Source of the DNA: Candidatus Dojkabacteria bacterium
Lineage (GTDB): Bacteria > Patescibacteriota > Dojkabacteria > B142 > JAFGFJ01
Reading direction: 5' to 3'
DNA: 64,000 nucleotides
Assembly (NCBI GenBank): GCA_016931155.1
Contig: JAFGFJ010000006.1
Location: 220,389 to 284,388 of the forward strand
Both the position numbers and the translations under genes were made by a program. Below are positions 14,710-30,684 of this stretch, in pieces. The notes below the pieces were generated by a model. That model saw only the letters and a list, made by a program, of their open reading frames with translations. It ran no database searches and was not told where the DNA came from. Every line of letters begins with the position of its first letter. The first letter of the stretch is position 1.

Positions 14710-17127
14710 GTGAAAAAAGGTAGAATTATTGCAGCACAGATAGTGATATTGTTTTTGGGGGTTTCCATGGCAATAATAGGACATAGTATGAGGACGAGTC
14801 TGGCTCCTGGAGCCGGTAAAGCTCAGACATGTGGTGCTGGTTGTTGTCCGGATGGTTGGTGTTATGGGGAGGATACAAATTATCCAGATTGGAGTGATTG
14901 CAGTGCCAGGGCATGGGATGCCTGCAGGAATCATCAGGGCAGTTGTTTATGCGATGGATGGGCTGCATGTGGAAGCACACATTGCAATACGGATCAGGGA
15001 GTAAAGTATTATTGCAATAATCGTTCCTGGCAGAATACAGGTCAACCCTGTGGTAGCCCTAGTAGTAGTAGCAGCAGCAGTAGTAGTAGCAGCAGTAGTG
15101 GAGGAGAATCGTGTAGGTATTATTCGTGCAATTTTCAGATAGTAAATGGACAGATTGTACCGGGATTTTGTGGTACTGATTATCCTGCAAAAGATCCTTG
15201 TTCGTTAAATCAGACAATATATTGTAGCAACAATACGGATTGTGGCACTGGTTGCTGTAAAGACGGAGTATGTGGAGTTGGCTGTACTTCTACCTGTAGT
15301 AAAAAAAGTGACTGCTGTATTGGTTTGGATTTGTCGAGTTGTACAGTGGAATGCACAAATGGTGTATGTATCGGTTCTGGAGGTCAGGAGCCTACTCCTA
15401 GATGTGGGGATGGAGTATGTGGTAGTACAGAAAGTGCGGCAACATGTCCTTCAGATTGTCCTGGAACTCCGGGGACACCGGGGGGTGAAGATGGAGGAAC
15501 ACAAACGGGAACTGTGATAGCTTGTAGTTCAAACAGTCAGTGTCCAGCAGCTGCTCCAACATGTAAAAATGGTGTTTGTGTTCTAAATATTACTGGAGAT
15601 GCCGATGGAGTTTGTCCGGCAGGTTATACAAATCTGCCAAAATCTGCTGATGTAGTCAATGGAAACTGGGACATTATCTGTATTTTGGGAGTTCCTGGGG
15701 TTATATCAGGTTTTCAACCTGAAAATTCTGCTTGTGTGCTGGGTACTAGGACTGCCTGCGGCTCTGGGTGCAACTCGTCGAAACAGCAACAGATATGTTA
15801 TGTAACAGGTTGGAGTGAATGTGTGGGTACTGATGCTTGTGCTCCAACAATACAGCCGGGAATTCCTTGTGATAATCTTTCTCGATATAGCGAAGGGGAA
15901 CCAAGCAAAGGAGCATTTGTGGGATGTCAGGGAACAAAGAATTGTTTTTGCCAGGTAAATAGCACATTAGGTCAGGCTGGAGGACTGACAGGTAATGTTG
16001 TTTGCTATGACGATCCTGGAAATGATTCCTGTGGTATATCTGTCCCTGCTGAAGTTGTACCTTCAACCTCTCCTTCACCATCTGTAGTTCCTTCTGGTCC
16101 GGTTCCACCACCGACTATTCCTCCCTCACCTCCACCGGGTGGTGATGCATATTGTGAAAGACTTGATGATAGTCAGACAGAAGACGGGAGCAGGGTGTTT
16201 GCCGTAGTTAGAGGGGAGGACTTTAGTGTAAGACTTTATACAGATGTTGCAACGAGAAGCGGAGGATCTGTTACAAATTACAGGTACAATGCAAGTGACG
16301 GGAGTGTGGATCCAGTAGGAAATACAAGTCAGAGTTATACGGACTACACAATTTCCGGCACGATAACAGCTGCGCTTCCTCTTGGTCTGATAGATGCTGC
16401 TGATGTAATAGTAACAGATAACAATGGGAGAACATCAGGTGGGATAGGAACGCTCTGTTCAGTGAGACTTTATGTTACGGATACACCAGTGGAAGGTCCC
16501 TTCTTTATAATTGAGAAGCTTGCAGGCAGTGTCTGTATAGATGAGCCTCAGAGAGCACTTGTTGGCTATACGATTACTCTGACAAATATTGGAGATACTG
16601 CGGGAACTGTTAATGAAGTTGTTGATACACTTGATAGCAGAATTACTACAAGTATGATATCAAATATAAGTCAGGGGGGGACTTTCAATAGTTCGACGCA
16701 TCAGATCACATGGAATAATAATGGGGCAGGTTTTACGCTTGATCCGGGGGAAGAGATGACGTTTACTTATGAGGTGACCTTTGCTGCAAGTCAGTTCGGA
16801 ACTTATACTAATACTGTAGAAGCTGTTGTTCCGCCTGATATACCGCCGCCTTCTCCGGCAACTGTTACAATTACGACAATTTGTTCAGGTCTTCCGGGGA
16901 CTGCAATCTTCGGTGATTCGATGGATAGAATACTTCTGGGTCTGGTACTTGTTACATTTGGGGCACTAGTCTATAGGCTGGGTATTCACAATCTTCTTGG
17001 TGAGAAATTCAGTATGTCTGAAGTGGGTTTCTTTCTTTCAGGATTAAGCAGGAGGGATAGAGAAGACATAATGAGAAGAAGAAAAGAGAGTCTTGAAAGC
17101 AATCTTTTGAGGAGAAAAAGAAAGTAA
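14710..17127 (+). CDS. Cys-rich cell-surface protein with poly-Ser tract, DUF11 (conserved repeat) domain and a C-terminal LPxTG-like (LPGTA) / hydrophobic / basic-tail sorting-type signal
   Basis: Signal anchor. Repeated CGxGCCxDGxCG modules. S13 tract encoded by (AGY)13. DUF11-like block VGYTITLTNIGDTAGTVNEVVD...TFTYEVTF. C-terminus ...GLPGTAIFG..ILLGLVLVTFGALVY..RRRKESLESNLLRRKRK. Confidence 0.6.
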   Translation: MKKGRIIAAQIVILFLGVSMAIIGHSMRTSLAPGAGKAQTCGAGCCPDGWCYGEDTNYPDWSDCSARAWDACRNHQGSCLCDGWAACGSTHCNTDQGVKYYCNNRSWQNTGQPCGSPSSSSSSSSSSSSSGGESCRYYSCNFQIVNGQIVPGFCGTDYPAKDPCSLNQTIYCSNNTDCGTGCCKDGVCGVGCTSTCSKKSDCCIGLDLSSCTVECTNGVCIGSGGQEPTPRCGDGVCGSTESAATCPSDCPGTPGTPGGEDGGTQTGTVIACSSNSQCPAAAPTCKNGVCVLNITGDADGVCPAGYTNLPKSADVVNGNWDIICILGVPGVISGFQPENSACVLGTRTACGSGCNSSKQQQICYVTGWSECVGTDACAPTIQPGIPCDNLSRYSEGEPSKGAFVGCQGTKNCFCQVNSTLGQAGGLTGNVVCYDDPGNDSCGISVPAEVVPSTSPSPSVVPSGPVPPPTIPPSPPPGGDAYCERLDDSQTEDGSRVFAVVRGEDFSVRLYTDVATRSGGSVTNYRYNASDGSVDPVGNTSQSYTDYTISGTITAALPLGLIDAADVIVTDNNGRTSGGIGTLCSVRLYVTDTPVEGPFFIIEKLAGSVCIDEPQRALVGYTITLTNIGDTAGTVNEVVDTLDSRITTSMISNISQGGTFNSSTHQITWNNNGAGFTLDPGEEMTFTYEVTFAASQFGTYTNTVEAVVPPDIPPPSPATVTITTICSGLPGTAIFGDSMDRILLGLVLVTFGALVYRLGIHNLLGEKFSMSEVGFFLSGLSRRDREDIMRRRKESLESNLLRRKRK

Positions 17128-18359: not shown

Positions 18360-18437
18360 GGTGGCTGTAGCTCAGTTGGTTAGAGCTTCGGTTTGTGGAA
18401 CCGAGTGTCGTGGGTTCGAGTCCCACCAGCCACCCCA
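18360..18437 (+). tRNA. tRNA-His (anticodon GTG) with encoded G-1 and encoded CCA
   Basis: G-1 (18360) pairs with discriminator C. Acceptor GTGGCTG/CAGCCAC. Anticodon loop TTGTGGA. T-arm GTGGGTTCGAGTCCCAC. The 3' end is followed by CCA. Confidence 0.85.
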
Positions 18438-19919
18438 ATTTAGACTGCTACTCGTTTCAAAGATGCTATCAAAAGGCTTTTGCATTGTGTAGATTATCTT
18501 TCCAGCTTTATATGACAGGTTCTGAAGTGTAAGTTGAATAATTTCCCTTTTTTCTTCTGGTTCTGAACCTGTAAATAGCTCAAAACTCTTGGAAGCCAAT
18601 TCCAGTAAATAAGAAGCATTTATATAATATTCTTCATCTGCCTGTTCCAAGCGAGCTAATTTATCCTTAAATTCCTGCTGTTCCTGTCTAAAGCGTTTAC
18701 GCAAATTGTCATATTCTTCCTGAGTAATACTACCATCAAGCTTATCTATATAGAGCCTTTCTATTCTACCTTCGAGTTTCTTTATCTGGTTATTATATTC
18801 ATCGAACATTTCGGTATTGAAATTGATTTTACCTTCATGTGCTTCTTTGAGTGTACCAACCATATGCTGTAAATAAGTTTTGGGAATATGCATCTTCTTA
18901 TATATTTCAGAAAACTGCTTAGTAAGGCTCTTTTCTTCTATCCAGATGTCCTCGTGTTTTCCTCTCGCACCTGTGCAGTGATAGTAGATATAAGAATGGA
19001 TGTTCCCGTTTTTTTGCTTCTTGGTGTGTAATTCAGGGGTCATACTGCAACCACACTCTTTGCAGTATATTAAGCCCCTGTAGCTACCATGTTTACCTAC
19101 GAACTTACCTTTGCGATTATTTTTATATCGTCTATTTCTGACACTTTCACACATTTGCCAGACATCTTTAGTAACTAATGTCGCATACTTATGTGGACCG
19201 ATTTCACCATTTAGTTCCCGCATTCCATAATAGAAAGGGTTCTTAAGAATTTTTTCAACTTTACTTTTGTAAATATCTGCATTTATGTCTAACTTAAGTT
19301 TTTGTGATATTTGTAAATAAGAGTAAGAACCAGAGGAGTACCAATCAAATATTTTTTTAACAATCCCAGATTCAAAAGGAAGCACCATAACCCCTGCTTT
19401 TTTAGTATTTTCATCCCTGCAATTCTTATACCCATAGGGTACTCGACCATATACTTCATGAGTTCTTAATTTACTTTGTATAGTATTATGAGTATCTTCC
19501 TGACATCTATTAATATGTTGCTTTGCAAGAAACACTTTCATATCCCAGTCTACTATATCTCTTCCGAAGCTCTTTGAAGTAAGGACAAGCCTATCATCAA
19601 CAAAATGGAGTTCTTTATCAAAATCGATTCTTAGAGAGTCCATTTCAACTGCATCCCTGTAGTTTCTTGTTAATCTATCAACTCGAAAGCCTATGATGGC
19701 TTTTATTTCACTATCAGTCTTAATAAAATCAATCATTTCATCGAATTTCTTTCTCAGTTTCTGACTGGCAGTTTCCTGAAAAACAAACTCCTTTATTACT
19801 TCAAGGTTATTGTCCATGGCGTACTGTCTTAGCTTGGGCAACTGAATTTCCTCGATTGACAATCCCTGTTTTTGTTGTTCTGGGGTAGATACTCTAGCCA
19901 GAATTATTGCTTTTTTCAT
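18372..19919 (-). CDS. large serine recombinase (phage-type serine integrase); last ~22 codons of the ORF are antisense to tRNA-His
   Basis: Resolvase N-domain AIILARVSTPEQ (Ser nucleophile) ... RVDRLTRN. Recombinase domain. Zn-ribbon CKECGCSM...YYHC. Coiled-coil C-region. The ORF stop is supplied from inside the tRNA-His gene. Confidence 0.85.
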   Translation of the reverse strand: MKKAIILARVSTPEQQKQGLSIEEIQLPKLRQYAMDNNLEVIKEFVFQETASQKLRKKFDEMIDFIKTDSEIKAIIGFRVDRLTRNYRDAVEMDSLRIDFDKELHFVDDRLVLTSKSFGRDIVDWDMKVFLAKQHINRCQEDTHNTIQSKLRTHEVYGRVPYGYKNCRDENTKKAGVMVLPFESGIVKKIFDWYSSGSYSYLQISQKLKLDINADIYKSKVEKILKNPFYYGMRELNGEIGPHKYATLVTKDVWQMCESVRNRRYKNNRKGKFVGKHGSYRGLIYCKECGCSMTPELHTKKQKNGNIHSYIYYHCTGARGKHEDIWIEEKSLTKQFSEIYKKMHIPKTYLQHMVGTLKEAHEGKINFNTEMFDEYNNQIKKLEGRIERLYIDKLDGSITQEEYDNLRKRFRQEQQEFKDKLARLEQADEEYYINASYLLELASKSFELFTGSEPEEKREIIQLTLQNLSYKAGKIIYTMQKPFDSIFETSSSLNWGGWWDSNPRHSVPQTEALTN

Positions 19920-20319
19920 TTAAAAAATTTAATATTTTCTCTACAGAATCACTCAGACTCTTTTCAATTTCGCATTCCCAAATATACAAGGTATTCCATC
20001 CCTGTGACTCCAGAATTTCCTTTACTTTTTTATCTCTAGCAATATTGCTATCGAGTTTTGTATTCCAGAATTTTTTATTAGTTTTAGGTCTATAAGTATT
20101 GCTGCAACCATGTTGATGCCAGAAACAACCATGAACAAAAACCACACTCTTCTGCTTCAGAAATACAAGGTCAGGTTTACCAGTGAGTTTATATTTCAGT
20201 CTATATCGAAACCCTTTCCTGTGAAGTTCTTTTCTAATAAGTATTTCTGGCTTTGTATCATTGCCTGTTATTCTGGACATGTTCCAGCTTCTTCTTGTTT
20301 TCGTCAGTTTGTCTGTCAT
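19894..20319 (-). CDS. vsr: very-short-patch-repair (T:G mismatch) endonuclease Vsr
   Basis: DTKPEILIRKELHRKGFRYRL...KPDLVFLKQKSVVFVHGCFWHQH...LYIWECEI. Near-canonical Vsr signature. Confidence 0.9.
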   Translation of the reverse strand: MTDKLTKTRRSWNMSRITGNDTKPEILIRKELHRKGFRYRLKYKLTGKPDLVFLKQKSVVFVHGCFWHQHGCSNTYRPKTNKKFWNTKLDSNIARDKKVKEILESQGWNTLYIWECEIEKSLSDSVEKILNFLNEKSNNSG

Positions 20320-21497
20320 TATTTCTGTACATAATCAACGTATTTAATGAAAGTTCCGAGAGAGTAAATCTTTCTTTGATATTCTTTAGGGTAAGCAGAA
20401 ATATAATCTTTAGGGACAACCAGTTTTACATCGTTTTCGTACATCTCTTTCAATTGATTAGATGAGATACCCTGTTGTAAGGTGAACAGATGTTTAACTC
20501 TTATTCTGTCTGCCTCATTAAGAATCTGTCTCCATCTATCTTTACAGGTAGTTTTTGCAGCTAGAAATATGAGTTTGTCTGTCTTAAAACTGCCGTTTCT
20601 GTATGATTCTATATCTGGAAAAATAAAATCAGGTTTTTTATTCCCTTCAGTCACTGGTTGTTCGTCAAATTTTAATTCGAAGATATTGAACATTTTAGAT
20701 AGATGATGTTCAAGTGATTTCCCAGCCCTGCTTTTTCTTCTCTGTAAAACTGAATTTGCAGATTTTATGAAATCGTCAATACTTTTGAATGGGTTCTTTA
20801 TTAAAGGCGCATATCTATCATTTTCTATAGCTTTGAACAATTGATACTCTGTATCCAGCCATCTTAAAAGTTCTCTATCTGGCATCTTTTTTATCTCAGG
20901 AGTATTTATATTTTGTGCTTTGATAATAATTCCCCTTGCATTATCGGCAAGTTCCGTAGAGGTAGGAAAATCTACTTTTAAGGTTTCAATATAACTTTGG
21001 AATAAGTCTTCAAGTTTTGCATCAATATCTATAACATTACTCTTTGGTATTATCCTATTTGTTTCACTTGGACTTAAACCGAAAGCGCTTAAGAAATCTT
21101 CTGTATCATCATCTGAAGAGAGAACAAACGCTTCATAATAATCATCAGTAATTCTGCCTATAACTATAAGATTTCCTATATTATTCTCTTGCAGAAAAGG
21201 AAAATTTCTTCCAAATCTTGTCAACCTGTATTCATTTCTAGTTCCTGTCCCATAATAAATGAATCTGCTTTCTGTTTCGAAATCTCCTTGCCATTTAATT
21301 TTTACAAATTTATCTTTATTGCTTCCCTTGACACCTGCCTTATCGAAGAATAAAGGATAGGAATTTCTATGAAGGTAAAAGCCGCTTTGATGAGCCCCTG
21401 TGGCTACGGTGTCGTTAGCAGTAATGAACTTGGTAAATGCAATATCACTTTTATTAACAAGATTTATTGCGTTATTTACAAGATTATTTTCTGTCAT
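20319..21497 (-). CDS. EcoRII-family type IIE restriction endonuclease (expected specificity CCWGG-like)
   Basis: N-terminal effector block FITANDTVATGAHQSGFYL (EcoRII: LSANDTGATGGHQVGLYI). C-terminal catalytic region ANSVLQRRKSRAGKSLEHHL...TEGNKKPDFIFP...AAKTTCKDRWRQILNEADRI...HLFTLQQG is almost colinear with EcoRII. Confidence 0.85.
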   Translation of the reverse strand: MTENNLVNNAINLVNKSDIAFTKFITANDTVATGAHQSGFYLHRNSYPLFFDKAGVKGSNKDKFVKIKWQGDFETESRFIYYGTGTRNEYRLTRFGRNFPFLQENNIGNLIVIGRITDDYYEAFVLSSDDDTEDFLSAFGLSPSETNRIIPKSNVIDIDAKLEDLFQSYIETLKVDFPTSTELADNARGIIIKAQNINTPEIKKMPDRELLRWLDTEYQLFKAIENDRYAPLIKNPFKSIDDFIKSANSVLQRRKSRAGKSLEHHLSKMFNIFELKFDEQPVTEGNKKPDFIFPDIESYRNGSFKTDKLIFLAAKTTCKDRWRQILNEADRIRVKHLFTLQQGISSNQLKEMYENDVKLVVPKDYISAYPKEYQRKIYSLGTFIKYVDYVQK

Positions 21498-22717
21498 TAC
21501 AAGTATTTAATAACTGATTTTGCCAGATGTTCCATTAGTGGAACAACTACTGAGTTGCCAAACTGCTTATAGGCTTGAGTATCTGAAACAGGAATGATGA
21601 AATTTTCTGGAAAACCCTGCAGCCTTGCACATTCCCGTGGGGTTAATTTTCGTGGATTTTTACCTTCCTGTGGAATCAGTATTTCTGAACCATCCTTGTA
21701 ATATCTGGCACTAAGTGTTCTAGTTACCCCGTTAAAATCAGCGAGTCCAAAACCAAATCCATTGCCCTTTTCTCTATGTTTTTTTGCATAGCTTTGAAGA
21801 TATTCCCATAGCTTGTCTGAGAGAGTGTATTTTTCATCGATATCCTTATCCAGAATATCAGAGAGTTTAGTCTTATTTAGTGGTACTTCAGGGAAACTGA
21901 AATTTTCTTCATTATTAAAAATGTCATTATTGAAGGCTACTACTATCGTTCTTTCTCGATGTTGAGGGACAAAATGTTTGCCATCAAAAACCTGAAAGTA
22001 TGGTGTGTAGTTCAAATCAGTAAGAGTGTTAAGTATGACTTTAAAGGTATTTCCTTTATCGTGAGACATGAGGTTTTTTACATTCTCTAAAAAAAGTATT
22101 TTAGGTCTCTTTTCTTTTACAATTCTTGCTATATCAAAGAATAATGTTCCCTTTGTACCATCAAGAAATCCATGATTAACTCCCATGCTTATCTTTTTGG
22201 ATACACCAGCGATTGAAAAAGGTTGACATGGAAATCCTGCAAGTAAGATATCATGATCTGGAATATCTTTTTCATCAATCTTTGTAATGTCACCTGCAGG
22301 AGTTTCTTTGAAGTTTGCTTCGTAAGTTTTACAAGCATAAGTGTCAATTTCAGAAGAAAAGACAGAAATACCCCCCTGTTTTTCAAATCCGATTCTTATA
22401 CCGCCAATTCCTGCGAACAGGTCTATGAATTTGAACTTGCCTGTTTTCTTCTCAGGTTTAATATCGTTGGGAAATATACCTGAGTTATCAAAACCCAGTT
22501 GAGGTTCAATAAGTGTATCTATTCTTACATCAAGTGCATTTGCAATTCTGACTACAGTTTCTATAGTTGGATTATGTTGAACCCCGCTTTCCAGTTTTGT
22601 AATAGTAGAGTAGGTAACACCCGATCGTTCAGCCAGGTCTTTTTGGGTCAGACCTCGAATTTTTCTCTCCCTTTCTATCTTTAATGCTATGTTTGACATA
22701 TGTGTTAATAATTTCAT
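21497..22717 (-). CDS. DNA (cytosine-5)-methyltransferase (Dcm/M.EcoRII-like) with fused N-terminal XRE-type HTH domain
   Basis: HTH (LTQKDLAERSGVTYSTITKLESG). C5-MTase motifs FDLFAGIGGIRIGF (I), GFPCQPFS (IV), ENV (VI). TAATG overlap with the REase start. Confidence 0.9.
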   Translation of the reverse strand: MKLLTHMSNIALKIERERKIRGLTQKDLAERSGVTYSTITKLESGVQHNPTIETVVRIANALDVRIDTLIEPQLGFDNSGIFPNDIKPEKKTGKFKFIDLFAGIGGIRIGFEKQGGISVFSSEIDTYACKTYEANFKETPAGDITKIDEKDIPDHDILLAGFPCQPFSIAGVSKKISMGVNHGFLDGTKGTLFFDIARIVKEKRPKILFLENVKNLMSHDKGNTFKVILNTLTDLNYTPYFQVFDGKHFVPQHRERTIVVAFNNDIFNNEENFSFPEVPLNKTKLSDILDKDIDEKYTLSDKLWEYLQSYAKKHREKGNGFGFGLADFNGVTRTLSARYYKDGSEILIPQEGKNPRKLTPRECARLQGFPENFIIPVSDTQAYKQFGNSVVVPLMEHLAKSVIKYL

Positions 22718-22741
22718 TCTATTGATATATTATACCCAGTG

Positions 22742-23887
22742 TTAATTCATATCAAGTTTATTTAACTTAACTTTTTCAAACTTACTTAATTTACTTAGTA
22801 ACGACTTGAAAGGACTCTTTGTTTTACTTACAACAAGCTGTTTCATTTCCTTATTTAGTCTATACCAGCTTGTTTTTCCAAACCTGTCTGTCACCTTCCT
22901 AAACTTTCTAACACCTATTTCCTCAAGTGCTACTTTTGCTCCAAAATAGACGAGTAACTTTCTGTAGCCAAGCTTTGGATTATTCAGTTGCAGTTCGGTT
23001 AAGATTCCTTCAAATGTCTCAGTTTCAACCATTAGTAGCTTTGGATAAGAAGATTCTATCTCTTTAATTATAGCAAGTAGTAGCTTCTTAGATAGTTTTT
23101 TGCTGTAGAGGTCTGTAAAAATGAGCTGTTTATTCTTAAAGGAGTATTTTTCAAGCAATTGCTTCATCTTTCTTCTGCTTCCTATCCTTACTTCGACTCG
23201 TAGGACTTCGAAAGGCTTCTTTGACTGTGGTTGGTCAAATAAACTCAATTGTGTGTAGTTATCCTTCTCTATAGCACGTTTTTCAGATAGTTTTGCCTGT
23301 TTTAGGTCTTTTAACTTGTCGTATAGAATAACTTCAAAATCATTACTGTGATATTTAATTGAGTGACCTTCATTTCTGAAGTCTGTACTATTCATGTCTA
23401 ATAGTCTATTTACGTTTATTTTACTTACCTCTTTCAGGATGGAGTAGGGCGTAGAATAGTCTGTAAGTACAATATTCTTTGAATAATGGACAGTAGATAC
23501 ATCTGCATTTGCTAGAATTTGTATATCCTCGATCTTTACTCCCATAATAAACAGTAAATCCTTTAGTTTCCAGCATATTTCACCGAAGTCTGATTCTTCT
23601 ACTTCATCAAAGTTGTTTCCATGAAGCAGTTTGGGGATGGAGAACTCAACCTTGAGGAATATAGTAAAACCACCTCTTCTAAGAGCTTTAAATATGGTTA
23701 GACGGGGTAAGTAGCCATGTTGCTGTTTGTCTGCCTTCGTGGGGTTATTTGTAGCCTTAAAAGGTGCTCTGGCAGTGACTTTAATGAAGGGGGGTACAAA
23801 TAGGTTTTCTGTTGAAGGTGAAAACTTATTATGGTCTAGAATCTTGAAGTCTTTTTCTTCAATTGTCAGTGAAATTGTATCTATCAT
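22742..23887 (-). CDS. hypothetical protein, possibly a Rep_trans-type (rolling-circle) replication initiation factor
   Basis: 381 aa. Blocks such as EVILYDKLKDL and VRIGSRRK resemble the conserved G-S-R...Y-D-K region of phage/plasmid Rep_trans proteins. Not verifiable without a profile search. Confidence 0.3.
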   Translation of the reverse strand: MIDTISLTIEEKDFKILDHNKFSPSTENLFVPPFIKVTARAPFKATNNPTKADKQQHGYLPRLTIFKALRRGGFTIFLKVEFSIPKLLHGNNFDEVEESDFGEICWKLKDLLFIMGVKIEDIQILANADVSTVHYSKNIVLTDYSTPYSILKEVSKINVNRLLDMNSTDFRNEGHSIKYHSNDFEVILYDKLKDLKQAKLSEKRAIEKDNYTQLSLFDQPQSKKPFEVLRVEVRIGSRRKMKQLLEKYSFKNKQLIFTDLYSKKLSKKLLLAIIKEIESSYPKLLMVETETFEGILTELQLNNPKLGYRKLLVYFGAKVALEEIGVRKFRKVTDRFGKTSWYRLNKEMKQLVVSKTKSPFKSLLSKLSKFEKVKLNKLDMN

Positions 23888-24146
23888 TGTTCATTACGTT
23901 TTTTAAGTAATTATTTACTTCCTCCTCAATCAGGCTACCTGTCTGTTTGTTTATTGGATGAAAAAGATTCATATCCCTGTTCCCAATGTGTTTGGTAGGG
24001 TAAACAAGCCTGTAATCCCTATCGGGCTTGGTAAAGATAGCCACAGAACTGCAATAAATAGCTTCAAATAAGACAAAGCTACAAAACGCAATTAAGCCAT
24101 TGTTTGGTTTCACTGGAATTACTTGTATTTCACTTATTATTTTCAT
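23859..24146 (-). CDS. SpoVG-family nucleic-acid-binding protein
   Basis: 95 aa. IQVIPVKPNNGLIAFCSFVLFEAIYCSSVAIFTKPDRDYRLVYPTK...FHPINKQTGSLIEEEVNNYL matches the SpoVG pattern (V.P....GL.A.ASI.LD..F.VH.IRVI....G.FVA.PS......DIAHPIN...R..I...V...Y). Confidence 0.55.
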   Translation of the reverse strand: MKIISEIQVIPVKPNNGLIAFCSFVLFEAIYCSSVAIFTKPDRDYRLVYPTKHIGNRDMNLFHPINKQTGSLIEEEVNNYLKNVMNNDRYNFTDN

Positions 24147-24341
24147 TGCTTTGTCTTTTTGAGTCTTTTGTCTATATCAATAAATATCTGAAATAGTTTT
24201 AGAACTCGCTCTTGTTCTTCAGAGGTTTTACAAACAGAACAATTGTCAGGTAAAGGCACCTGATCCTTGTTGTATATAGTTTGTAAATGCTTATCCTCAG
24301 TTTGCATATACTGAGGATACAGAGTGGGTAGTTACGTAAAG

Positions 24342-24962
24342 TTACGTGACAAGTGAAGGATTTACCTGAATAGTCTTAGTTTTTACAATTAGAAACTTTT
24401 TAACGTCAGTTTTCTTAGCAACTTTCTCATTAACTCTCTTTCCTGCTCTGTAAACTACTTTGTTATCGATATTTTCTGTTGATTCACCCCATTCCTCAAC
24501 GATTTCATCCCATGACCATTCTTTTTTCATGGACTCTGTGTCTTTGAGGATAACCTTTAGAAGCTTATTTTCTAGGGAATCGGAGGGAAAATCCCTAATT
24601 AGTTCATTCTGAAGTAAAAGTGCTGGAATGTCGGGGTAATACTTTGGGATACTCTTTCTCTTTGACCTTCTTAGATTCTCCTTCATTTCCTTAAGCTCGA
24701 TTCGGAGTTTTTCATATTGTAAGTGCTTCGTCCTGTCTTCTTCTGTGTCGTAAGTATACATTCCGTCAGCGCTACCGTGTAGTAGAAATTCTGCTATACG
24801 CCTTAATTGCTGAACAACTGGGTCTTCTCCTATTGTTGGAGTTCTTTTACCAACAAACCCAATTTGGAACTCTATTTTGCCCAATATTTTATTTAGTTGA
24901 ACAAGTTCTTCTTTGATTTCGTTTAGTGAGGAAGTTATGTTTTCATTTGAATCATTTTTCAT
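24342..24962 (-). CDS. hypothetical protein (charged, coiled-coil-like)
   Basis: 206-aa ORF co-directional with the integrase / R-M / Rep-like genes. No recognisable motif. Confidence 0.4.
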   Translation of the reverse strand: MKNDSNENITSSLNEIKEELVQLNKILGKIEFQIGFVGKRTPTIGEDPVVQQLRRIAEFLLHGSADGMYTYDTEEDRTKHLQYEKLRIELKEMKENLRRSKRKSIPKYYPDIPALLLQNELIRDFPSDSLENKLLKVILKDTESMKKEWSWDEIVEEWGESTENIDNKVVYRAGKRVNEKVAKKTDVKKFLIVKTKTIQVNPSLVT

Positions 24963-24999
24963 TACGTCTTCGTTCTACTACTCTACAATAAGTTATGGA

Positions 25000-25731
25000 C
25001 TATTTACATTCTTCATCCTTGTTCTTATCAAGAATATAGTCCTTTATCTTCCAGTAATTATCTACTATTTTTTGATAGTTGTTAGCAAATATCTCCTGTA
25101 AATTACTGTCAGTTCTTAACTTTTCTTTAAGGTCTTGTAGATAGTTAATTAAATCAAAAAATAAGCAGAAGTTATTAACCAAAATCTCGTTCCTATGATA
25201 CCTTAAATGGCAATAACCTTTCCTGTTTTTTGCGATTTTGAAGTACTCAGATAGTTCCTCTAATGATTTAGGAGCATCGTGTTTTAAGTAATTAGACTGA
25301 AAGAACCACGACTCCTGTCTATCTTTCCTAGTTGCTCCTTTTCTTATAGTATCAATTATATGGGGTAGGGGACGGACATTATGGACTAGATCATGCCTAT
25401 AGACCTGCACAAGATAGCTCCTGTACCTTTTGTATTTTGAATTTACATATTTATCGTAAGGCATAAAGTCATTAAGTACTATTTTTATTCTTTCTGTTTG
25501 TTTTTTCCCTGTGTGAATATACATTAGAGAAGCAATGTGATCTGTAAAACAAAAAATATTCCTTGCTATAGTAAAAAGGCCTATTTGACTTTCTAATAAA
25601 GGGAAAATATCTCCTTTTAGTTGGTCTATTAAATCAGATACATATTCATAAGGTTGGAAACTTTTTCCTGGAAGAACGGCTAAATGAAATAGACCTTTAT
25701 CTTTGTTCACTACTGTAAGGTGTGTGGTCAT
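25000..25731 (-). CDS. hypothetical protein
   Basis: 243-aa ORF, first gene of the minus-strand string. No recognisable motif. Confidence 0.4.
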   Translation of the reverse strand: MTTHLTVVNKDKGLFHLAVLPGKSFQPYEYVSDLIDQLKGDIFPLLESQIGLFTIARNIFCFTDHIASLMYIHTGKKQTERIKIVLNDFMPYDKYVNSKYKRYRSYLVQVYRHDLVHNVRPLPHIIDTIRKGATRKDRQESWFFQSNYLKHDAPKSLEELSEYFKIAKNRKGYCHLRYHRNEILVNNFCLFFDLINYLQDLKEKLRTDSNLQEIFANNYQKIVDNYWKIKDYILDKNKDEECK

Positions 25732-25953
25732 GAAAAGGTGGAATAACTATAGAATTATACTCTAATGTACAAGCCTATAATTGAAGAGCAATGTTTTCCA
25801 TATATGAACTTTCTATGAGCCTTTTTATATTGTTTACGTTTATAGTAATCTCAGTAGATTGGTTCATGAACGAGTCTAATAAGTGACCCCACTACCAGGA
25901 AACTCGCCCTAAAAGACGCTTGCACTCCATAAATACTCGTGTTATTATCGATT

Positions 25954-27207
25954 ATGGTAATAAAAAGAGCAATCGAAAAAGAAATAGTCGAGCATCTCTC
26001 CTCACCAGAAATAACTCTCATAGTCGGGCCAAGGCAGGTTGGTAAAACTACATTGATAAATAAAATAGCCGAATCACTGAAGAACAAAGGGGAAAGTGTC
26101 TTTACACTCAACCTGGATATAGAAGATGATTTTGGTTTGCTTGAAAGTCAGTCAAGGCTTGTGAGTCAAATTGGACTCAATATAGGAAAGGATAAGGGAT
26201 ATGTATTCATAGATGAAGTGCAACGGAAAGAAGACGCAGGAAGGTTTTTCAAGGGAATTTATGACATGAAACTTCCTTACAAGTTTATCTTAACAGGTTC
26301 CGGAAGTGTAGAGTTAAAGGAAAAGGTTTCGGAATCGCTTACTGGGAGAAAAAAGATTTTTGAAATGAGGCCGATAAGTTTTTTCGAATTTATAGACTAC
26401 AAAACTCAATATCAGTATTCGGATAGATTGGCTTCCTTTTTCTCTCTCAAAGATCCAAGACTTGAACCTTTGTTTAATGAGTACATGCAGTTTGGCGGAT
26501 ATCCACGCGTTATGCTTGCGGACAGACTAGAGACAAAGCGTGCGGAAATGCAGGAAATATATAAAAGTTATCTAGAGAAGGACATTACGCAACTTCTGAA
26601 TATTCAAAAAGCAGAATCATTTAGCAAATTAATTACTTTACTATCAAGTCAGGCAGGTAAGCAGATAAATATAGAAGAATTAAGTACTACTCTCTCTCTC
26701 GATTCAAAAACAATAAAAAACTATTTGTGGTATTTAGAAAAGACTTACATAATAAAAGTCTGCAGACCGTATTTTACGAACCCAAGAAGCGAACTTGTTA
26801 AATCGTCAGTTTACTACTTTCTTGACCTTGGAATGAGTAACTATGCACTCAATAGATTTAGTAATTTTGATCTTACTTTACATGGAGGACAATTGTTCGA
26901 GAACTTTATATTTAACCACTTGATCAATAAATACTACAAAACTGATCCTACAATCAATTTCTGGAGAACAAAAGATGGAGCAGAAGTTGATTTTATCTTT
27001 AGGGTGGGAGCACAGGTAATACCGATCGAAGTAAAGTATAAGAAACTCTTAAAACCCACCGCAGGGCGCTCTTTGTATAATTATTTAGAAAAATACAAAT
27101 CTGCTGAAGCTCATATAGTAAACTTAACGCTGGATGAGGAAATAAAATCTAGGAAATCAAAACTCATATTCAGTAGTTATCCAAAATTTCTGTCTATGGA
27201 TATATAA
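25954..27207 (+). CDS. AAA+ ATPase of the AAA_14 / DUF4143 family
   Basis: Walker A GPRQVGKTTL, Walker B VFIDEVQ, and the typical ~400-aa architecture. The ATG at 25954 is preferred over the upstream GTG at 25939. Confidence 0.75.
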   Translation: MVIKRAIEKEIVEHLSSPEITLIVGPRQVGKTTLINKIAESLKNKGESVFTLNLDIEDDFGLLESQSRLVSQIGLNIGKDKGYVFIDEVQRKEDAGRFFKGIYDMKLPYKFILTGSGSVELKEKVSESLTGRKKIFEMRPISFFEFIDYKTQYQYSDRLASFFSLKDPRLEPLFNEYMQFGGYPRVMLADRLETKRAEMQEIYKSYLEKDITQLLNIQKAESFSKLITLLSSQAGKQINIEELSTTLSLDSKTIKNYLWYLEKTYIIKVCRPYFTNPRSELVKSSVYYFLDLGMSNYALNRFSNFDLTLHGGQLFENFIFNHLINKYYKTDPTINFWRTKDGAEVDFIFRVGAQVIPIEVKYKKLLKPTAGRSLYNYLEKYKSAEAHIVNLTLDEEIKSRKSKLIFSSYPKFLSMDI

Positions 27208-27210
27208 TAG

Positions 27211-27239
27211 TACCAAAATTCCTTCCACCAGCCACCCCA
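27211..27239 (+). repeat. att-like direct repeat copy A (TACCAAAATTCCTTCCACCAGCCACCCCA); last 15 nt identical to the 3' end of tRNA-His including CCA
   Basis: CCACCAGCCACCCCA at 27225-27239 equals 18423-18437. Lies 4 nt after the ATPase stop. Confidence 0.8.
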
Positions 27240-27404
27240 GACGCAATAAAACATAACAAACCTTCCAGAACGCTCTCCTGTTAATAGAATTCGAGGTTCG
27301 AATTTATAAAAAATCAAATATAAAAACACTTCTGTTAGTAATATTGCATTTAAAGACTGTTTAGAATATAATACGGAAGTGTATGTTATCTTAAGTAGTC
27401 AGAA

Positions 27405-28019
27405 ATGAGAAGAAAAACACTTTTTACAAATTTTATAAACACACCCTACTTTACAAAGCAGGATCTATTGGTTTTGGCTGATAAATTCAATATCTCTGAG
27501 ACAAGTATTAACACGTTAATTCAGAGATCTATCAAAAGCAAGGAAATCATCTCATTAAAAAGAAATTGTTATGTTAATAGAGAATTTTTTCTTAAGAATA
27601 GAGATAATCTAGAGTATAAGTTCTTTGTTGCCAATATATTGATAAAATCCTCGTATATTAGCCGAGAAACCGCTCTACAGTATTACGGACTACTTTCCGA
27701 AGCATCACTGAACTATTTTACTTCTACTACTATCAAGCTACCTAGAAAATTTGAGAAATCACTCGGTATTTTTGAATACAGAAATATTAAGGATGAACTT
27801 TTTAATGGATATAAGAGTGTAAGATTTTCGATTGGTGGAAATGAATATTCGTACCTAATAGCAGAACCCTACAAAGCAATATTTGATTATATATATTATC
27901 GTACAAGTAAAAGGTCAATATCTGAAGGATTACTTATGTCAGTAATGAATGAGCTCAGAATAAATTACCATGACCTTGAAAAGGATCAGCTAGATAAATT
28001 AATTAATTCTTTTAAATAA
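27405..28019 (+). CDS. AbiEi-like antitoxin / transcriptional regulator (type IV TA system), putative
   Basis: 204-aa protein immediately upstream of, and abutting, an AbiEii-type nucleotidyltransferase gene (stop at 28017-28019, ATG at 28020). N-terminal wHTH-like region. Assignment is mainly by synteny. Confidence 0.45.
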   Translation: MRRKTLFTNFINTPYFTKQDLLVLADKFNISETSINTLIQRSIKSKEIISLKRNCYVNREFFLKNRDNLEYKFFVANILIKSSYISRETALQYYGLLSEASLNYFTSTTIKLPRKFEKSLGIFEYRNIKDELFNGYKSVRFSIGGNEYSYLIAEPYKAIFDYIYYRTSKRSISEGLLMSVMNELRINYHDLEKDQLDKLINSFK

Positions 28020-29285
28020 ATGTTAATAGATAAATTAAAACTAAAATTTAAAGAACTTAAAGAGGAAGGTAAAACGGAAGATTCAATATTAATAGCCTTA
28101 AAGGAAATTTTGCAGCACTATATATTGAACTTCATTTACACAAGCAAAAATTATTCTTATTTGACAATGTATGGTGGGACTGTTTTAAGAATAGGATATA
28201 ACCTTCCTAGAATGTCTGAAGACTTAGATTTTCAGACACATAAGAAATTAGATTTAGAGAAATTTACCGAGGAAATAAAGAGGTATTTTAAGGATAATTA
28301 CGCATTTGATATAGAAGTAAAGCACAAAAGCTCACCAGAGAATAATACAAGCACATTATTTATAAAGTTCTTCACGTTAAAAGAACTAGGTTTTAAAAAA
28401 TTAAAGCTTGAAAGACTTCATGTCAAAGTAGATGTAAACTACTTTGAAACGGCAAATAAATTTGTAAACGATACTGTACCAGGTGGTAAAGGCACGGAGT
28501 TAGCCTATACAATTAAAACTTATCCCCTTTCTACTCTAATGGCGAGTAAGGCTGTTGCATTCCTAAAGAGAGATGCCAGAGGTATAGGTGATATTTTAAC
28601 GAATGTAAAATCAAGAGATGTATACGATATGATGTGGTATATGAATCGAGGAACTATGCCTGATTTGGAATATCTTAAAGCAAAAGATATAAGCTTTGAC
28701 ACATTTTTAGATTTTAGAGATAAAGTCAAGATTAGAGCAAACAAGATTGAAGACAACGCCTTTAGAAATGATTTATCTCAGTTCTTTTATGATAGAAATG
28801 AACTTGAAAACTGGCTATCTAGCTGGAGACCAAAATTTATGCAGTTATTAGATTCATATAAAGTATATGAAGTTGGGGAATTAGAGAGGATTTATGGGCA
28901 TGTAGATTTCAGTACAGATAATAGATCTATTTCTTATACATTTAATGCTTTAGACAATCAAAATCAGAATGTGATCTTTAGTGTGACACTTACAGATTAC
29001 TGGTTCGAGTTTAGAGATATAAAAATAAATAGAGGTCACAGAGTAGCAGAGATTGAAGATAAGGCTGAGAAAGGAAGAGGTGAAATGACTGAGTTAGACT
29101 ATGAGTATATTGGACTCTTCTACACAAAGATTAAAGATTACTTAAAGCGAAATAAGAACGTGGTTTTCCAGAATGAATTTGAAACTAAAGTAATACGGGC
29201 TTCAGCAGACAATTTAGATCCAAAAAAGCAGATTTATCTTGATAAAAGGCTTTTGGAGAAGATAGATTTTGAAGAATTATTGTGA
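28020..29285 (+). CDS. AbiEii-family nucleotidyltransferase toxin (DUF1814) with a long C-terminal extension
   Basis: LTMYGGTVLRIGYNLPRMSEDLDFQ matches the (K)GGTAL...R.SEDIDF signature of AbiEii/DUF1814. 421 aa versus ~300 aa typical. Confidence 0.6.
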   Translation: MLIDKLKLKFKELKEEGKTEDSILIALKEILQHYILNFIYTSKNYSYLTMYGGTVLRIGYNLPRMSEDLDFQTHKKLDLEKFTEEIKRYFKDNYAFDIEVKHKSSPENNTSTLFIKFFTLKELGFKKLKLERLHVKVDVNYFETANKFVNDTVPGGKGTELAYTIKTYPLSTLMASKAVAFLKRDARGIGDILTNVKSRDVYDMMWYMNRGTMPDLEYLKAKDISFDTFLDFRDKVKIRANKIEDNAFRNDLSQFFYDRNELENWLSSWRPKFMQLLDSYKVYEVGELERIYGHVDFSTDNRSISYTFNALDNQNQNVIFSVTLTDYWFEFRDIKINRGHRVAEIEDKAEKGRGEMTELDYEYIGLFYTKIKDYLKRNKNVVFQNEFETKVIRASADNLDPKKQIYLDKRLLEKIDFEELL

Positions 29286-29326
29286 ATATTAATGAACAAC
29301 TCTCAAGAGAATACGGTTTAACCAAC

Positions 29327-29349
29327 GTTCCAAAATTCCTTCCACCATT
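29327..29349 (+). repeat. att-like direct repeat copy C (GTTCCAAAATTCCTTCCACCATTA), degenerate
   Basis: Shares GTTCCAAAATTCCTTCCACCA with copies A and B. Sits 42 nt after the AbiEii stop. Confidence 0.6.
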
Positions 29350-29437
29350 AAGCCTAAATTTCCCTTTAGTTGTAGCAGAAGCTTTTCAATTTTACTGAGA
29401 ATTGATAATCTACTGATGAATATGTCGATCAAACAGA

Positions 29438-30598
29438 ATGAATGAAACTGAATCAGGTATAAAAATAAGTACGGCTGATTTCAGACTACTCCAACCCTAT
29501 TCAGACTATTTAACGAAAGCTGTGAGTCCTTTGTGGGGAGAAGTTTCTTCATCTAAACCTGGAGATTCGCTTTTCGAACTTGGGCGGATCGCGTTATCCA
29601 ATAAGGCTTTAGTCGAAGATATCCATGTTTCTCACTTGAGAGATACAATTATAGAGAATGAAGTCAATCCATACCTGGTCAAGTTAGTCTCCAATTTTGA
29701 CAAGTACAGTGAATTGATAGACAAGATCCAGAGAAAAAAAACTGACTTAACTTGGGATGATGAGCGACTTCATGAGGATGGATTACCTGAGAATCTTTTT
29801 GAAGAACACAGGGCATATCAGAAGGAACTGTATCATCCAACACCAGTATGCTTACGAGATTTACATATAGAGAGTTTGGACATTCTGTGTGAATATGAGG
29901 TTAATCCCAAATTAAGAAAATTTATCAATAAAATTGGTGGGATTGCTCTGTTCGAAGAACTAATTGCTCTTGCAACTAAGCAAGACTCTGTGGACTTGGA
30001 TAGAGTAGTCCCCTTTACTGACCTCGCCTACCAAGGACTAAATAAATGGTCAGTCCTATTAGAGCCTGTTTCGCCACCTCTTTTTTGTTTGCTCAGTAAA
30101 GATAATAGATTACTTCTGAAAGAACAGAATCCCAAGTTGCTAGAAATTCTTGAAAGATTTTTTCTACTAGAATTTGGACCTCATAATTCATCAGTGTATG
30201 TTGTTCCTTCGGTCGAAAATCCAACAGGATCTTTGTCAAGGGAGTACGAATTAGATTTATTATATTTAGAGCAACATAAAATGAAAGAAGAGGAATATAT
30301 TAACCTTCTTGGTGAATTATGTATGAGTTTTCATAAAGTTAAAGAAGGGACGCGAAGTTACACCTTTAAGGGAGTAGAATTTAGAAAATTGTCTATTTCT
30401 CATTATGATGAGAGATCCCCATTCACTGGGGAAATACCAGAACAGGAAGATTTTGATTTGGTTCTATACAAGGGAGGGAAAGAGGTTGGGGTAATTCCGA
30501 GTTGCTGGAAATACTTTGCGAGTGAGGGTATTTATGAGTCACCTGGTGCAAGATTCTCTTTTAGCCCTAGAAAGATTCTCCCCTTATTTGCTAAATGA
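29438..30598 (+). CDS. hypothetical protein (386 aa), single-gene module between two att-like repeats
   Basis: Good-length ORF. No motif recognised. Flanked by repeat C upstream and repeat B downstream. Confidence 0.45.
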   Translation: MNETESGIKISTADFRLLQPYSDYLTKAVSPLWGEVSSSKPGDSLFELGRIALSNKALVEDIHVSHLRDTIIENEVNPYLVKLVSNFDKYSELIDKIQRKKTDLTWDDERLHEDGLPENLFEEHRAYQKELYHPTPVCLRDLHIESLDILCEYEVNPKLRKFINKIGGIALFEELIALATKQDSVDLDRVVPFTDLAYQGLNKWSVLLEPVSPPLFCLLSKDNRLLLKEQNPKLLEILERFFLLEFGPHNSSVYVVPSVENPTGSLSREYELDLLYLEQHKMKEEEYINLLGELCMSFHKVKEGTRSYTFKGVEFRKLSISHYDERSPFTGEIPEQEDFDLVLYKGGKEVGVIPSCWKYFASEGIYESPGARFSFSPRKILPLFAK

Positions 30599-30616
30599 GA
30601 AGTTCAAGGGAAATAG

Positions 30617-30644
30617 TTCCAAAATTTCTCCCACCAGCCACCCC
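30617..30644 (+). repeat. att-like direct repeat copy B (GTTCCAAAATTTCTCCCACCAGCCACCCC); 16 nt identical to the tRNA-His 3' end
   Basis: TCCCACCAGCCACCCC at 30629-30644 equals 18421-18436. Lies 19 nt after the 386-aa gene stop. Confidence 0.8.
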
Positions 30645-30684
30645 GCAAAATTTCTAGGTCCATTATCAATAAAGGCCTTCTTGT

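Follow-up and report, generated by a model that had tools for sequence, protein, structure and literature searches.

In Escherichia coli K-12 the dcm and vsr genes are chromosomal and stand without a restriction endonuclease (REase), and EcoRII is plasmid-borne. Targeting of tRNA genes is overwhelmingly carried out by tyrosine integrases, and the Patescibacteria (Candidate Phyla Radiation, CPR) have tiny genomes, mostly without CRISPR and with few described mobile elements. Where restriction-modification (R-M) genes and an integrase sit together at a tRNA gene's 3' end, the arrangement has been read as a mobile form of R-M system (Furuta, Abe & Kobayashi 2010, PMC2853133), and integrative mobilizable elements (IMEs) of Firmicutes combine a serine recombinase with a Rep_trans (MobT) relaxase (Libante et al. 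2020, PMC7563843; Guedon et al. 2017, PMC5704250). Pipolins and tycheposons are precedents for defence-carrying integrative platforms and for islands stacked at tRNA genes; a large serine recombinase was found in 27 of 937 tycheposon-like elements (Hackl et al., bioRxiv 10.1101/2020.12.28.424599), and 14 of 297 serine-integrase elements lay at t(m)RNA genes, a use that was termed previously unreported (Mageeney et al. 2020, PMC7192596). Here we describe a locus in a 64-kb stretch of a Candidatus Dojkabacteria metagenome-assembled genome (the whole stretch is called the window below), where genes for a methyltransferase (MTase), an REase, the repair endonuclease Vsr and a large serine integrase (int) run as an overlapping chain beside tRNA-His. 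Our preferred explanation, to which we give a probability of roughly 75%, is that the R-M-Vsr trio is a cargo cassette in a 7,454-bp serine-integrase element integrated at that tRNA gene.

The element occupies positions 18438-25891 between two ACCCCA cores (Table 1). At its int-proximal end the core spans the last acceptor-stem base, the discriminator and the CCA of tRNA-His, the same geometry as in 9 related elements, and the junction at the far end sits in an intergenic region beyond the gene p243. There the core is followed by an arm, CACTTATTAGACTCGTTC, that mimics the 3' half of the tRNA with GACTCG in register, and a far-end motif of this kind (a few tRNA-end bases, then TNNNR-GACTYRTTC) lies upstream of the backbone genes in 9 other elements. 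These measure 7.3-15.8 kb, the 15.8 kb belonging to a tandem locus (L014) and all others being 11.4 kb or less. Joining the outer flanks yields an intact tRNA-His followed by host sequence, the reconstructed attB, with the empty-site junction GAGTCCCACCAGCCACCCCACTACCAGGAAACTCGCC; joining the inner flanks yields the reconstructed attP AGCATCTTTGAAACGAGTAGCAGTCTAAATTGGGGTCACTTATTAGACTCGTTCATGAACC, with the junction GCAGTCTAAATTGGGGTCACTTATTAGACTCGTTC. This attP carries an apparent partial dyad (AACGAGT...TCTAAAT with ATTAGA-CTCGTT), and GACTCG in its right arm is in register with the tRNA T-arm, so that the hexamer is held by both the attP and the attB arms. In the elements at tRNA-Asn the far-end copy starts with TTG, CTG or GTG instead of TGG, and past GCTCC it matches the element consensus and not the host tRNA; because of these differences we place the crossover about 3-7 nt from the tRNA 3' end. 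A far att site made of a long direct copy of the 3' half of tRNA-His was considered and rejected, none being present within 3 mismatches and the core being 6 bp, and a search of the far end for the int-proximal arm in inverted form gave no convincing match.

The int gene runs into the tRNA. Its last 22 codons are the antisense of the 3' 66 nt of tRNA-His, a feature missing from an earlier note on this DNA. That note's placement of the cassette at the tRNA-proximal end of an island is supported. The conserved integrase protein ends in ...LNWG, and the tail that follows in the window, GWWDSNPRHSVPQTEALTN, is tRNA antisense. When 16 homologues (56-70% identity) are aligned, the conserved part likewise ends at L-x-W-G, past which the proteins either stop or carry tails such as DSNPxPSVPQTDALTN, which are the antisense translation of the tRNA T-arm and anticodon arm. 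All loci inspected have the tRNA-encoded CCA as the reverse complement of the conserved Trp codon TGG. Among 31 loci with an intact int C-terminus in a species-representative genome collection, 25 have an antisense tRNA at exactly the int 3' end (Asn 14, His 4, Gln 4, Arg 3); the integrase homologues are of 36-70% identity, and such a position is unusual for serine integrases. With the attP core embedded in its C-terminal codons, the integrase would have its C-terminus swapped by integration: the predicted protein is 532 aa long in the circle and 515 aa when integrated, the tails diverging after LNWG. A scan for noncoding RNA over 17-31 kb returned two tRNAs and nothing else. One relative (L006-L008, P0008; 67% identity) has an integrase truncated at 470 aa; the remaining C-terminal part and the tRNA-His antisense lie some 30 nt downstream in a different frame. 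The copy is likely decayed, and type I-like R-M cargo is still present in it.

Set against the units of Furuta et al. (PMC2853133), which rely on integrase homologues of the tyrosine type and on long direct repeats of the 3' part of the tRNA, the locus differs in its large serine integrase and 6-bp core, and it adds five backbone genes (22742-25731) and a slot that is exchangeable across a whole family. It differs from the elements in the survey of Mageeney et al. in belonging to an entire serine-integrase clade that is dedicated to tRNA 3' ends and keeps its attP inside the int reading frame.

The chain itself is as the earlier note had it. On the minus strand the open reading frames (ORFs) follow one another in the order MTase, REase, vsr, int with start/stop overlaps, and direct reading of the junctions gives ttgTAATGaca, with TAATG common to MTase and REase, then aaaTAATGaca, with nt 20319 common to REase and vsr, and finally an int ATG at 19919 that lies 26 nt before the vsr TAG. 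The identities that had been proposed for the four products also hold, since Pfam, NCBIfam and PADLOC agree on them (PADLOC labels MTase_II, REase_II and Vsr; NCBIfam Vsr TIGR00632 and the dcm superfamily). The REase matches the B3-like effector domain EcoRII-N (PF09217, 1.7e-23) and the PD-(D/E)XK catalytic domain EcoRII-C (PF09019, 1.5e-62), both above cut-off, and aligns over residues 17-385 with the sequence of the EcoRII crystal structure (PDB 1NA6, phmmer 3e-60), with the catalytic and recognition blocks SRAGKSLE, NKKPDF(I/L)FP and KTTCKDRWRQILNEAD identical or nearly so; its core also matches PspGI and Ecl18kI, and such relatives recognise CCWGG or CCNGG. Vsr scores 94 bits against PF03852 (5e-27, cut-off 27) and 136 bits against TIGR00632 (cut-off 97.85), and its translation carries VHGCFWHQHGC, the HGCFWHxHxC block that is invariant in the Vsr alignment. 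The integrase has Resolvase, Recombinase and Zn_ribbon_recom domains, all three above cut-off, matches PHROG 95 integrase at 1e-50, and keeps R9, S11 and R79-D81-R82, which are invariant across the 16 homologues, the active-site Ser among them. Because of these domain assignments, the alignment with 1NA6 and the conserved blocks, all four genes look intact at the level of sequence. By analogy with its families, the cassette is predicted to be specific for CCWGG. It resembles EcoRII and Dcm/Vsr in having a full-length EcoRII homologue, a Dcm-family MTase and a bona fide Vsr, and differs in that the trio forms one coupled cassette that brings its own predicted promoter and sits in a patescibacterial integrative element.

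The MTase leads to a second set of described systems, the SsoII/Ecl18kI/Kpn2kI-type R-M systems. It consists of an N-terminal helix-turn-helix (HTH) domain (HTH_3, 1e-16, residues 14-68) and a C5 MTase domain (PF00145 DNA_methylase, 1.3e-97, model positions 1-324 of 324), in whose translation FAGIGG, GFPCQPFS, ENV, QHRER and GNSV can be read; it also matches NCBIfam PRK10458 of the Dcm family at 5.5e-115, under the subfamily cut-off. An MTase on a 4.2-kb plasmid of Shigella sonnei is 51% identical over its full length, HTH included, the BLASTP alignment beginning at residue 9 of the window protein and residue 4 of the plasmid protein, and this plasmid has a divergent type II REase gene with the palindrome AGGACAAATTGTCCT between the two genes. 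We take this to be the SsoII plasmid, with the specificity CCNGG and with AGGACAAATTGTCCT as its operator, and the closest characterised relatives of the window MTase are thus presumably CCNGG enzymes. The earlier assignment of an N-terminal XRE-type HTH of the SsoII kind is confirmed by the HTH_3 match and this full-length similarity. The window MTase is homologous to the SsoII-type enzymes along its whole length, with all ten C5 motifs covered by the Pfam model, and a conserved short imperfect dyad just downstream of the putative -10, a candidate operator, is placed much as an autoregulatory operator would be. The window genes differ in being collinear (M, R, V) and TAATG-coupled where the reference plasmid has divergent genes, in lacking the palindrome of that plasmid, and in encoding an EcoRII-like two-domain type IIE nuclease and not an SsoII-like one. 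A further homologue on a Runella plasmid (54% identity) is partnered with an REase of the MvaI/BcnI family, and we conclude from this that the MTase lineage pairs with different CC(N/W/S)GG nucleases.

The MTase probably starts at the second ATG, 22699, and not at 22717. The NCBI annotation has 400 aa, which fits a start at 22699, the N-termini of the closest homologues (MSPLAIRIQKEREIRGLTQ...) line up with this second Met, and the ATG at 22717 falls within a noncoding leader block that is conserved at the DNA level before three other cassettes. This block, CTGGGTATAATATATCAATAGAATGAAA, starts five bases after the p381 stop codon (TAA, 22744-22742) and contains a -10 that is preceded, in 3 of the 4 promoters, by a -35-like TTGAAA or TTGATA at a distance of 15-17 nt, which is not evident in L062. 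On the evidence of its conservation in the four sequences, the leader dyad TCAyTAAATTGA is the best candidate for an operator. The earlier note had proposed another, the direct repeat GTGTTAAT at 22702-22709 and 22739-22746. The repeat is present, as that note said, and its role as operator is not upheld: exact 8-mer direct repeats within 60 nt occur in 8.4% of the 80-nt windows of this sequence, and the repeat is absent from the aligned homologous promoters. A 7-nt inverted repeat, TTGATAT/ATATCAA, was set aside as well, such a repeat being present in about 8.5% of random 80-nt windows, and a search of the 64-kb window for an SsoII-type operator gave matches at chance level only, none of them near the MTase.

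Several observations show that the cassette (about 19920-22741, 2.8 kb, with its own conserved promoter and leader) is a module in its own right. The leader block is shared by three other Patescibacteria HTH-MTase genes, whose proteins are 68-79% identical, and these cassettes (L059, L060 and L062) keep the same M-R-(V) order, with 0-14-nt junctions, in three other contexts. In L059 (7001-12486), M-R-V (MTase 79%, REase 66% and Vsr 64% identity) is followed by a 281-aa gene and then by an unrelated serine integrase, which is 25% identical to the window int and overlaps an antisense tRNA-Glu with its 3' end, so that a second serine-integrase lineage with the same tRNA-end geometry has captured the same cassette. 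In L060/61, a complete Dojkabacteria chromosome, there is M-R only and no integrase, and in L062/63 the M-R-V genes come after an IS1595 transposase. More distant M-R-V cassettes with 0-1-nt junctions and no recognisable HTH occur among polysaccharide genes in gut metagenomes. The closest Vsr, that of L059, stops exactly where the window Vsr reads into int, and the last 7 residues of the latter, EKSNNSG, are read-through into the int 5' end. Together with the shared leader block, this end point argues that the cassette was dropped in as a promoter-carrying unit between the p381 stop and the int start.

That position is the one held in relatives by HTH_17, a small gene of an excisionase-family HTH protein, with or without cargo. 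In most relatives the p381-to-int interval contains either a 53-72-aa HTH_17 gene alone or HTH_17 plus 1.1-4.8 kb of cargo, and the gene is present in 22 related loci. Seven loci have a short interval (25-253 nt) and no cargo; in 6 of them HTH_17 directly abuts int, which amounts to an empty slot, and L023 has a 25-nt p381-int gap and no HTH_17. HTH_17 is also lacking in L002 and L033, where the cargo alone fills the space from p381 to int. The final cargo ORF usually stops 18 nt or less from the int start or overlaps int. By Pfam, the cargo comprises type III Mod and Res (L005), an N6_N4 MTase with an 842-aa protein (L026), N6_Mtase or HSDR_N_2-N6_Mtase fusions with an S subunit (L006/7, L012, L017, L018/19 and L027), MmeI-like single-chain enzymes (L015 and L035), an Erm/KsgA-like rRNA methyltransferase (L021), a kinase with an EEP nuclease (L014) and unknowns (L002 and L033). 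R-M systems (type I-like, IIG and III, and the window's own) thus fill 10 of the 14 occupied slots. Since more than 20 relatives keep the backbone with an empty or differently filled slot, the fusion of R-M genes to int is a property of the cargo slot and not of this R-M system. The L021 gene (9110-9997, in a Shapirobacteria genome) encodes an RrnaAD-family rRNA adenine dimethylase (Pfam 5e-54), and a macrolide-resistance type of cargo is possible there.

The remainder of the element is a backbone of five genes, and all nine element ORFs are intact and lie on one strand with minimal spacing. The proteins p95 and p381 are encoded upstream of int in more than 20 loci, and p381, p95 and p54 are 50-62% identical to the proteins in the same positions in the closest relatives, L002 and L005. 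None of p381, p95, p54, p206 and p243 has a significant match in Pfam, PHROGs, NCBIfam, PADLOC or PDB; p95 is weakly similar to SpoVG (Pfam E 0.004, under cut-off). For p381 there are 1,414 database homologues of about 380 aa, none with a Pfam domain, and a Foldseek comparison of its model with PDB, a PDB-sequence profile search and Pfam scans of 30 members returned nothing; residue Y189 is invariant among the aligned p381 proteins. Its predicted fold points to the rolling-circle initiators of plasmids and IMEs, and on that basis p381 is probably a Rep_trans/MobT-like nickase. The comparison with the Firmicutes IMEs rests on small size (<12 kb), a serine recombinase, a protein with a predicted Rep_trans fold and the presence of cargo. 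The differences are that p381 has no sequence-level relation to Rep_trans, that the Firmicutes elements target oriT or protein-coding genes where this family targets the tRNA 3' end, and that they carry antibiotic resistance where this family has mainly R-M cargo. Conjugation genes were not seen among the genes examined in 14.7-35.5 kb of the window or in the examined loci, and we know of no conjugative helpers in the host phylum, the Patescibacteria.

Table 1. Positions, strands and supporting evidence for the parts of the tRNA-His element, in window coordinates
Feature	Position	Strand	Evidence or remark
tRNA-His (GTG), intact, element target	18361..18437	plus	ARAGORN; Rfam tRNA 69.1 bits
int-proximal att core ACCCCA (TGGGGT on int strand)	18432..18437		identical hexamer at both ends, flanks diverge
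Large serine integrase (int)	18372..19919	minus	515 aa as integrated; Pfam, PHROG 95, alignment
Vsr very-short-patch-repair endonuclease	19894..20319	minus	141 aa; PF03852, TIGR00632, C-terminal alignment
EcoRII-like type IIE REase	20319..21497	minus	392 aa; N-terminal effector and C-terminal catalytic domain
MTase, SsoII-type C5 with N-terminal XRE-type HTH	21497..22699	minus	400 aa from ATG 22699 (probable start)
HTH-fused C5 MTase ORF (longest)	21497..22717	minus	ORF list
Candidate operator TCAATAGAATGA	22725-22714	minus	conserved imperfect dyad TCAyTAAATTGA, just downstream of -10
Putative -10 TATAAT	22734-22729	minus	within CTGGGTATAATATATCAATAGAATGAAA block
Conserved leader block CTGGGTATAATATATCAATAGAATGAAA	22739-22712	minus	contains -10 and candidate operator
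Putative -35 TTGATA	22755-22750	minus	inside last p381 codons
Predicted cassette promoter and leader	22700..22755	minus	DNA-level conservation before 3 other HTH-MTase cassettes; promoter scan matches
p381, conserved backbone protein, putative rolling-circle Rep/MobT-like nickase	22742..23887	minus	fold-level
p95, conserved backbone protein	23859..24146	minus	29-nt overlap with p381; next to p381 in 20+ loci
p54, small backbone protein	24143..24307	minus	4-nt overlap with p95; tblastn against L002, L005, L012, L014
p206, variable distal gene	24342-24962	minus	inside att-bounded segment; no family matches
p243, variable distal gene	25000-25731	minus	inside att-bounded segment; no family matches
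Far-end junction, core TGGGGT (25891-25886) then arm CACTTATTAGACTCGTTC	25868..25891	minus	similarity search with tRNA 3' end

If the trio is cargo of such an element, int would have joined, by recombination, an attP at its own gene's 3' end to the 3' terminus of tRNA-His, with the crossover inside ACCCCA; in consequence the tRNA would stay intact and the int frame would run on antisense into it. The backbone would comprise p243, p206, p54, the SpoVG-like p95 and p381, the last of which, from its fold resemblance, may nick and replicate, or mobilise, the excised circle. The cassette would have been acquired as a unit into the slot between p381 and int. Judging from the enzyme families, methylation by the MTase would fall on the inner C in CC(W/N)GG, unmodified sites would be cut by the type IIE REase and Vsr would repair the T:G mismatches that arise by deamination of 5-methylcytosine, with TAATG termination-reinitiation presumably coupling translation in the order M, R, V. 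The cassette could in this way give the host defence, and it could act as an addiction module for the element through post-segregational killing, since the host chromosome has about 1.3 CCWGG sites per kb. There is no room for a promoter of its own before int, so int would be expressed by read-through of the cassette and backbone transcript, the weakest step of the scheme. Binding of the MTase HTH to the conserved leader could shut down M, R, V and int together after establishment, and this role would replace the missing small HTH_17 gene. With lower confidence, HTH_17 may be an excision factor whose loss fixed the window copy.

Restriction-site counts were compared with expectation. The window has 85 CCWGG sites, an observed-to-expected ratio (O/E) of 0.83 by a third-order Markov model, and outside the element CCNGG stands at 0.96, so if the REase is active the host, which is not depleted in sites, must rely on methylation. 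Within the element there are 2 CCNGG sites where 11.7 are expected, and 8 related elements with other cargo have 31 where 87 are expected. Across 70.5 kb pooled from related elements (the element parts of L002, L012, L017, L018, L021, L027, L033 and L034) the O/E is 0.11 for GGCC, 0.13 for GGNCC, 0.14 for GATATC, 0.20 for CGCG and 0.36 for CCNGG. This palindrome avoidance marks the family as horizontally moving DNA under restriction pressure. Depletion of CCWGG or CCNGG was tried as evidence of the cassette's specificity and rejected, the host not being depleted and the depletion in the element being part of the family-wide avoidance of palindromes. The most under-represented 5-mers of the 64-kb window are GGCCC/GGGCC (O/E 0.29) and GGACC/GGTCC (O/E 0.50), not CCWGG, and this suggests long-term exposure to restriction of the GGNCC/GGWCC type rather than to a resident CCWGG-type system.

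Five observations weigh against reading the trio as cargo of a mobile element, or against parts of that reading. No empty site, circular junction or second copy of the exact element was found, exact-protein look-ups of flanking genes giving neither an empty site nor a second sample, and the element is on record from one sample only. The dyad symmetry of the reconstructed attP is only partial. CCNGG avoidance is family-wide and weaker than that of other palindromes, so that it carries no information on the specificity of this cassette. Promoter-like matches in the region are no commoner than in shuffled sequence (28 versus 29), and for this reason it is conservation across the four cassettes that has to carry the promoter argument. 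Finally, the HTH_17 gene is absent from the entire 64-kb window, and if it encodes an excision factor the window copy may be locked in.

This last absence is the starting point of an alternative that we regard as unlikely, namely that the element integrated once, lost HTH_17 when the cassette replaced it, and is now an immobilised relic, a chromosomal defence operon with a leftover integrase, whose tight chaining reflects genome compaction and nothing else. Patescibacterial genomes are compact and the whole element is overlap-chained, the element is known from one sample only, and another Dojkabacteria genome (L060) has the same cassette fixed in its chromosome. Yet the nine ORFs are intact with their catalytic motifs, the att cores are identical, and there is a break in the assembly graph at the junction. 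HTH_17 is likewise missing from the closest relative (L002-L004), which occupies the tRNA-His of a different genome and has different cargo, from which it follows that HTH_17-less variants have spread; moreover, the role of HTH_17 as a recombination directionality factor for the serine integrase is itself a supposition. As for the assembly, among the Logan contigs L001 and L009, from an independent assembly of the source sample (SRR13394437), the one with the element stops within tRNA-His, 15 nt beyond the int stop codon, and the left-flank contig ends about 400 nt before a 227-aa gene, at about 18.25 kb, within or just before the tRNA-Arg/tRNA-His pair. Such breaks would fit population heterogeneity at the junction, and they could also be an assembly artefact.

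The earlier note had taken the R-M-Vsr operon, fused to the integrase, for a self-mobilising unit. Its general idea, an R-M system on mobile DNA, is supported; the specific reading, in which integrase and R-M genes co-evolved as one minimal fused module that moves alone, is very improbable and we regard it as largely refuted. The four genes are contiguous and overlapping, Furuta et al. (2010, PMC2853133) provide a precedent in which R, M and an integrase homologue sit together in a tRNA gene, and the same cassette lies near a second, unrelated serine integrase in L059. However, the att cores enclose five further genes in the 7,454 bp, with no att-like sequence between the MTase and p381, members of the integrase clade are accompanied by p95 and p381 and by a wide variety of cargoes or none, and the cassette is found without an integrase in L060 and with an insertion sequence in L062. 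A prophage remnant or phage satellite with a phage-derived backbone, moving by transduction, would account for the PHROG 95 integrase, the small size, the tRNA site and the satellite-like defence cargo, but it is scarcely credible given that none of the five backbone proteins matches any PHROG family, that capsid, terminase and packaging genes are absent, and that the p381 fold points to plasmid- or IME-type rolling-circle initiators.

The surroundings of the element bear on how this tRNA site is used. Beyond the far end, two stretches on the plus strand, 27224-27239 (TCCACCAGCCACCCCA) and 30630-30645 (CCCACCAGCCACCCCG), are 15/16-nt direct copies of the tRNA-His 3' end, both preceded by a similar arm of about 19 nt, AATAGTWCCAAAATTYCTY. 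These copies were considered as ends of the element and rejected, their adjoining arms being unlike the family motif, which sits at 25868-25891. They delimit two integrase-less segments: 25892-27239, with an AAA_14/DUF4143 ATPase that matches the PADLOC candidate system PDC-S01 (E 3.7e-89), and 27240-30645, with AbiEi/AbiEii and a 386-aa protein without assignment. The region 25892-30645 looks like a tandem accretion of defence islets at tRNA-His by a different integration system. In the related locus L014 (9928-20125), also at tRNA-His, there is a complete element with no tRNA after its int; next come a second, distant serine recombinase and an int fragment that abuts tRNA-His, a tandem layout that is evidence of successive insertions into one site. 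Tycheposons are similar in that cargo elements with integration and replication modules are stacked at tRNA genes (Hackl et al., bioRxiv 10.1101/2020.12.28.424599), and the window likewise shows tandem accretion at the two extra tRNA-His copies. To the left of the tRNA pair (14710-17127, plus strand) is a gene for an 805-aa protein rich in Cys, with 12 consecutive Ser residues, Pro-rich linkers and two hydrophobic segments, one N-terminal and one near the C-terminus; the local GC content is 0.445 against about 0.36 elsewhere.

The R-M trio on its own is ordinary, and it is the surrounding element family, apparently undescribed, that is the interesting part. The combination of a serine-integrase clade at tRNA ends, an attP inside int, an R-M slot and patescibacterial hosts was not found in searches of the open-access literature, and a prior description may exist. 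Tentatively, and at less than even odds, we propose that the element in the window belongs to a large family of patescibacterial integrative elements of 7-11 kb (p381 has at least 1,400 homologues), in which, as features that would make the family new, a serine-integrase clade acts at the last nucleotides of tRNA genes for His, Asn, Gln and Arg, with the attP core in the C-terminal codons of int and a fixed, int-abutting slot that shuttles R-M systems of type I-like, II, IIG and III, and in which the tail swap and, in the window copy, the MTase HTH in place of the usual HTH_17 gene could be integration-state switches of integrase expression or stability.

For the R-M field, the cassette would be a collinear module with its own promoter, recombined from an SsoII-type regulatory MTase, an EcoRII-type nuclease and Vsr and moving between at least 4 genomic contexts. 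The family would counter the rule that tRNA genes are targets of tyrosine and not of serine integrases (PMC7192596), and its diversified large serine integrases, with short and predictable attB sites at tRNA 3' ends, are potential genetic tools for an intractable phylum. If it is real, a widespread family of elements loaded with R-M systems would explain how restriction barriers are gained and exchanged in Patescibacteria.

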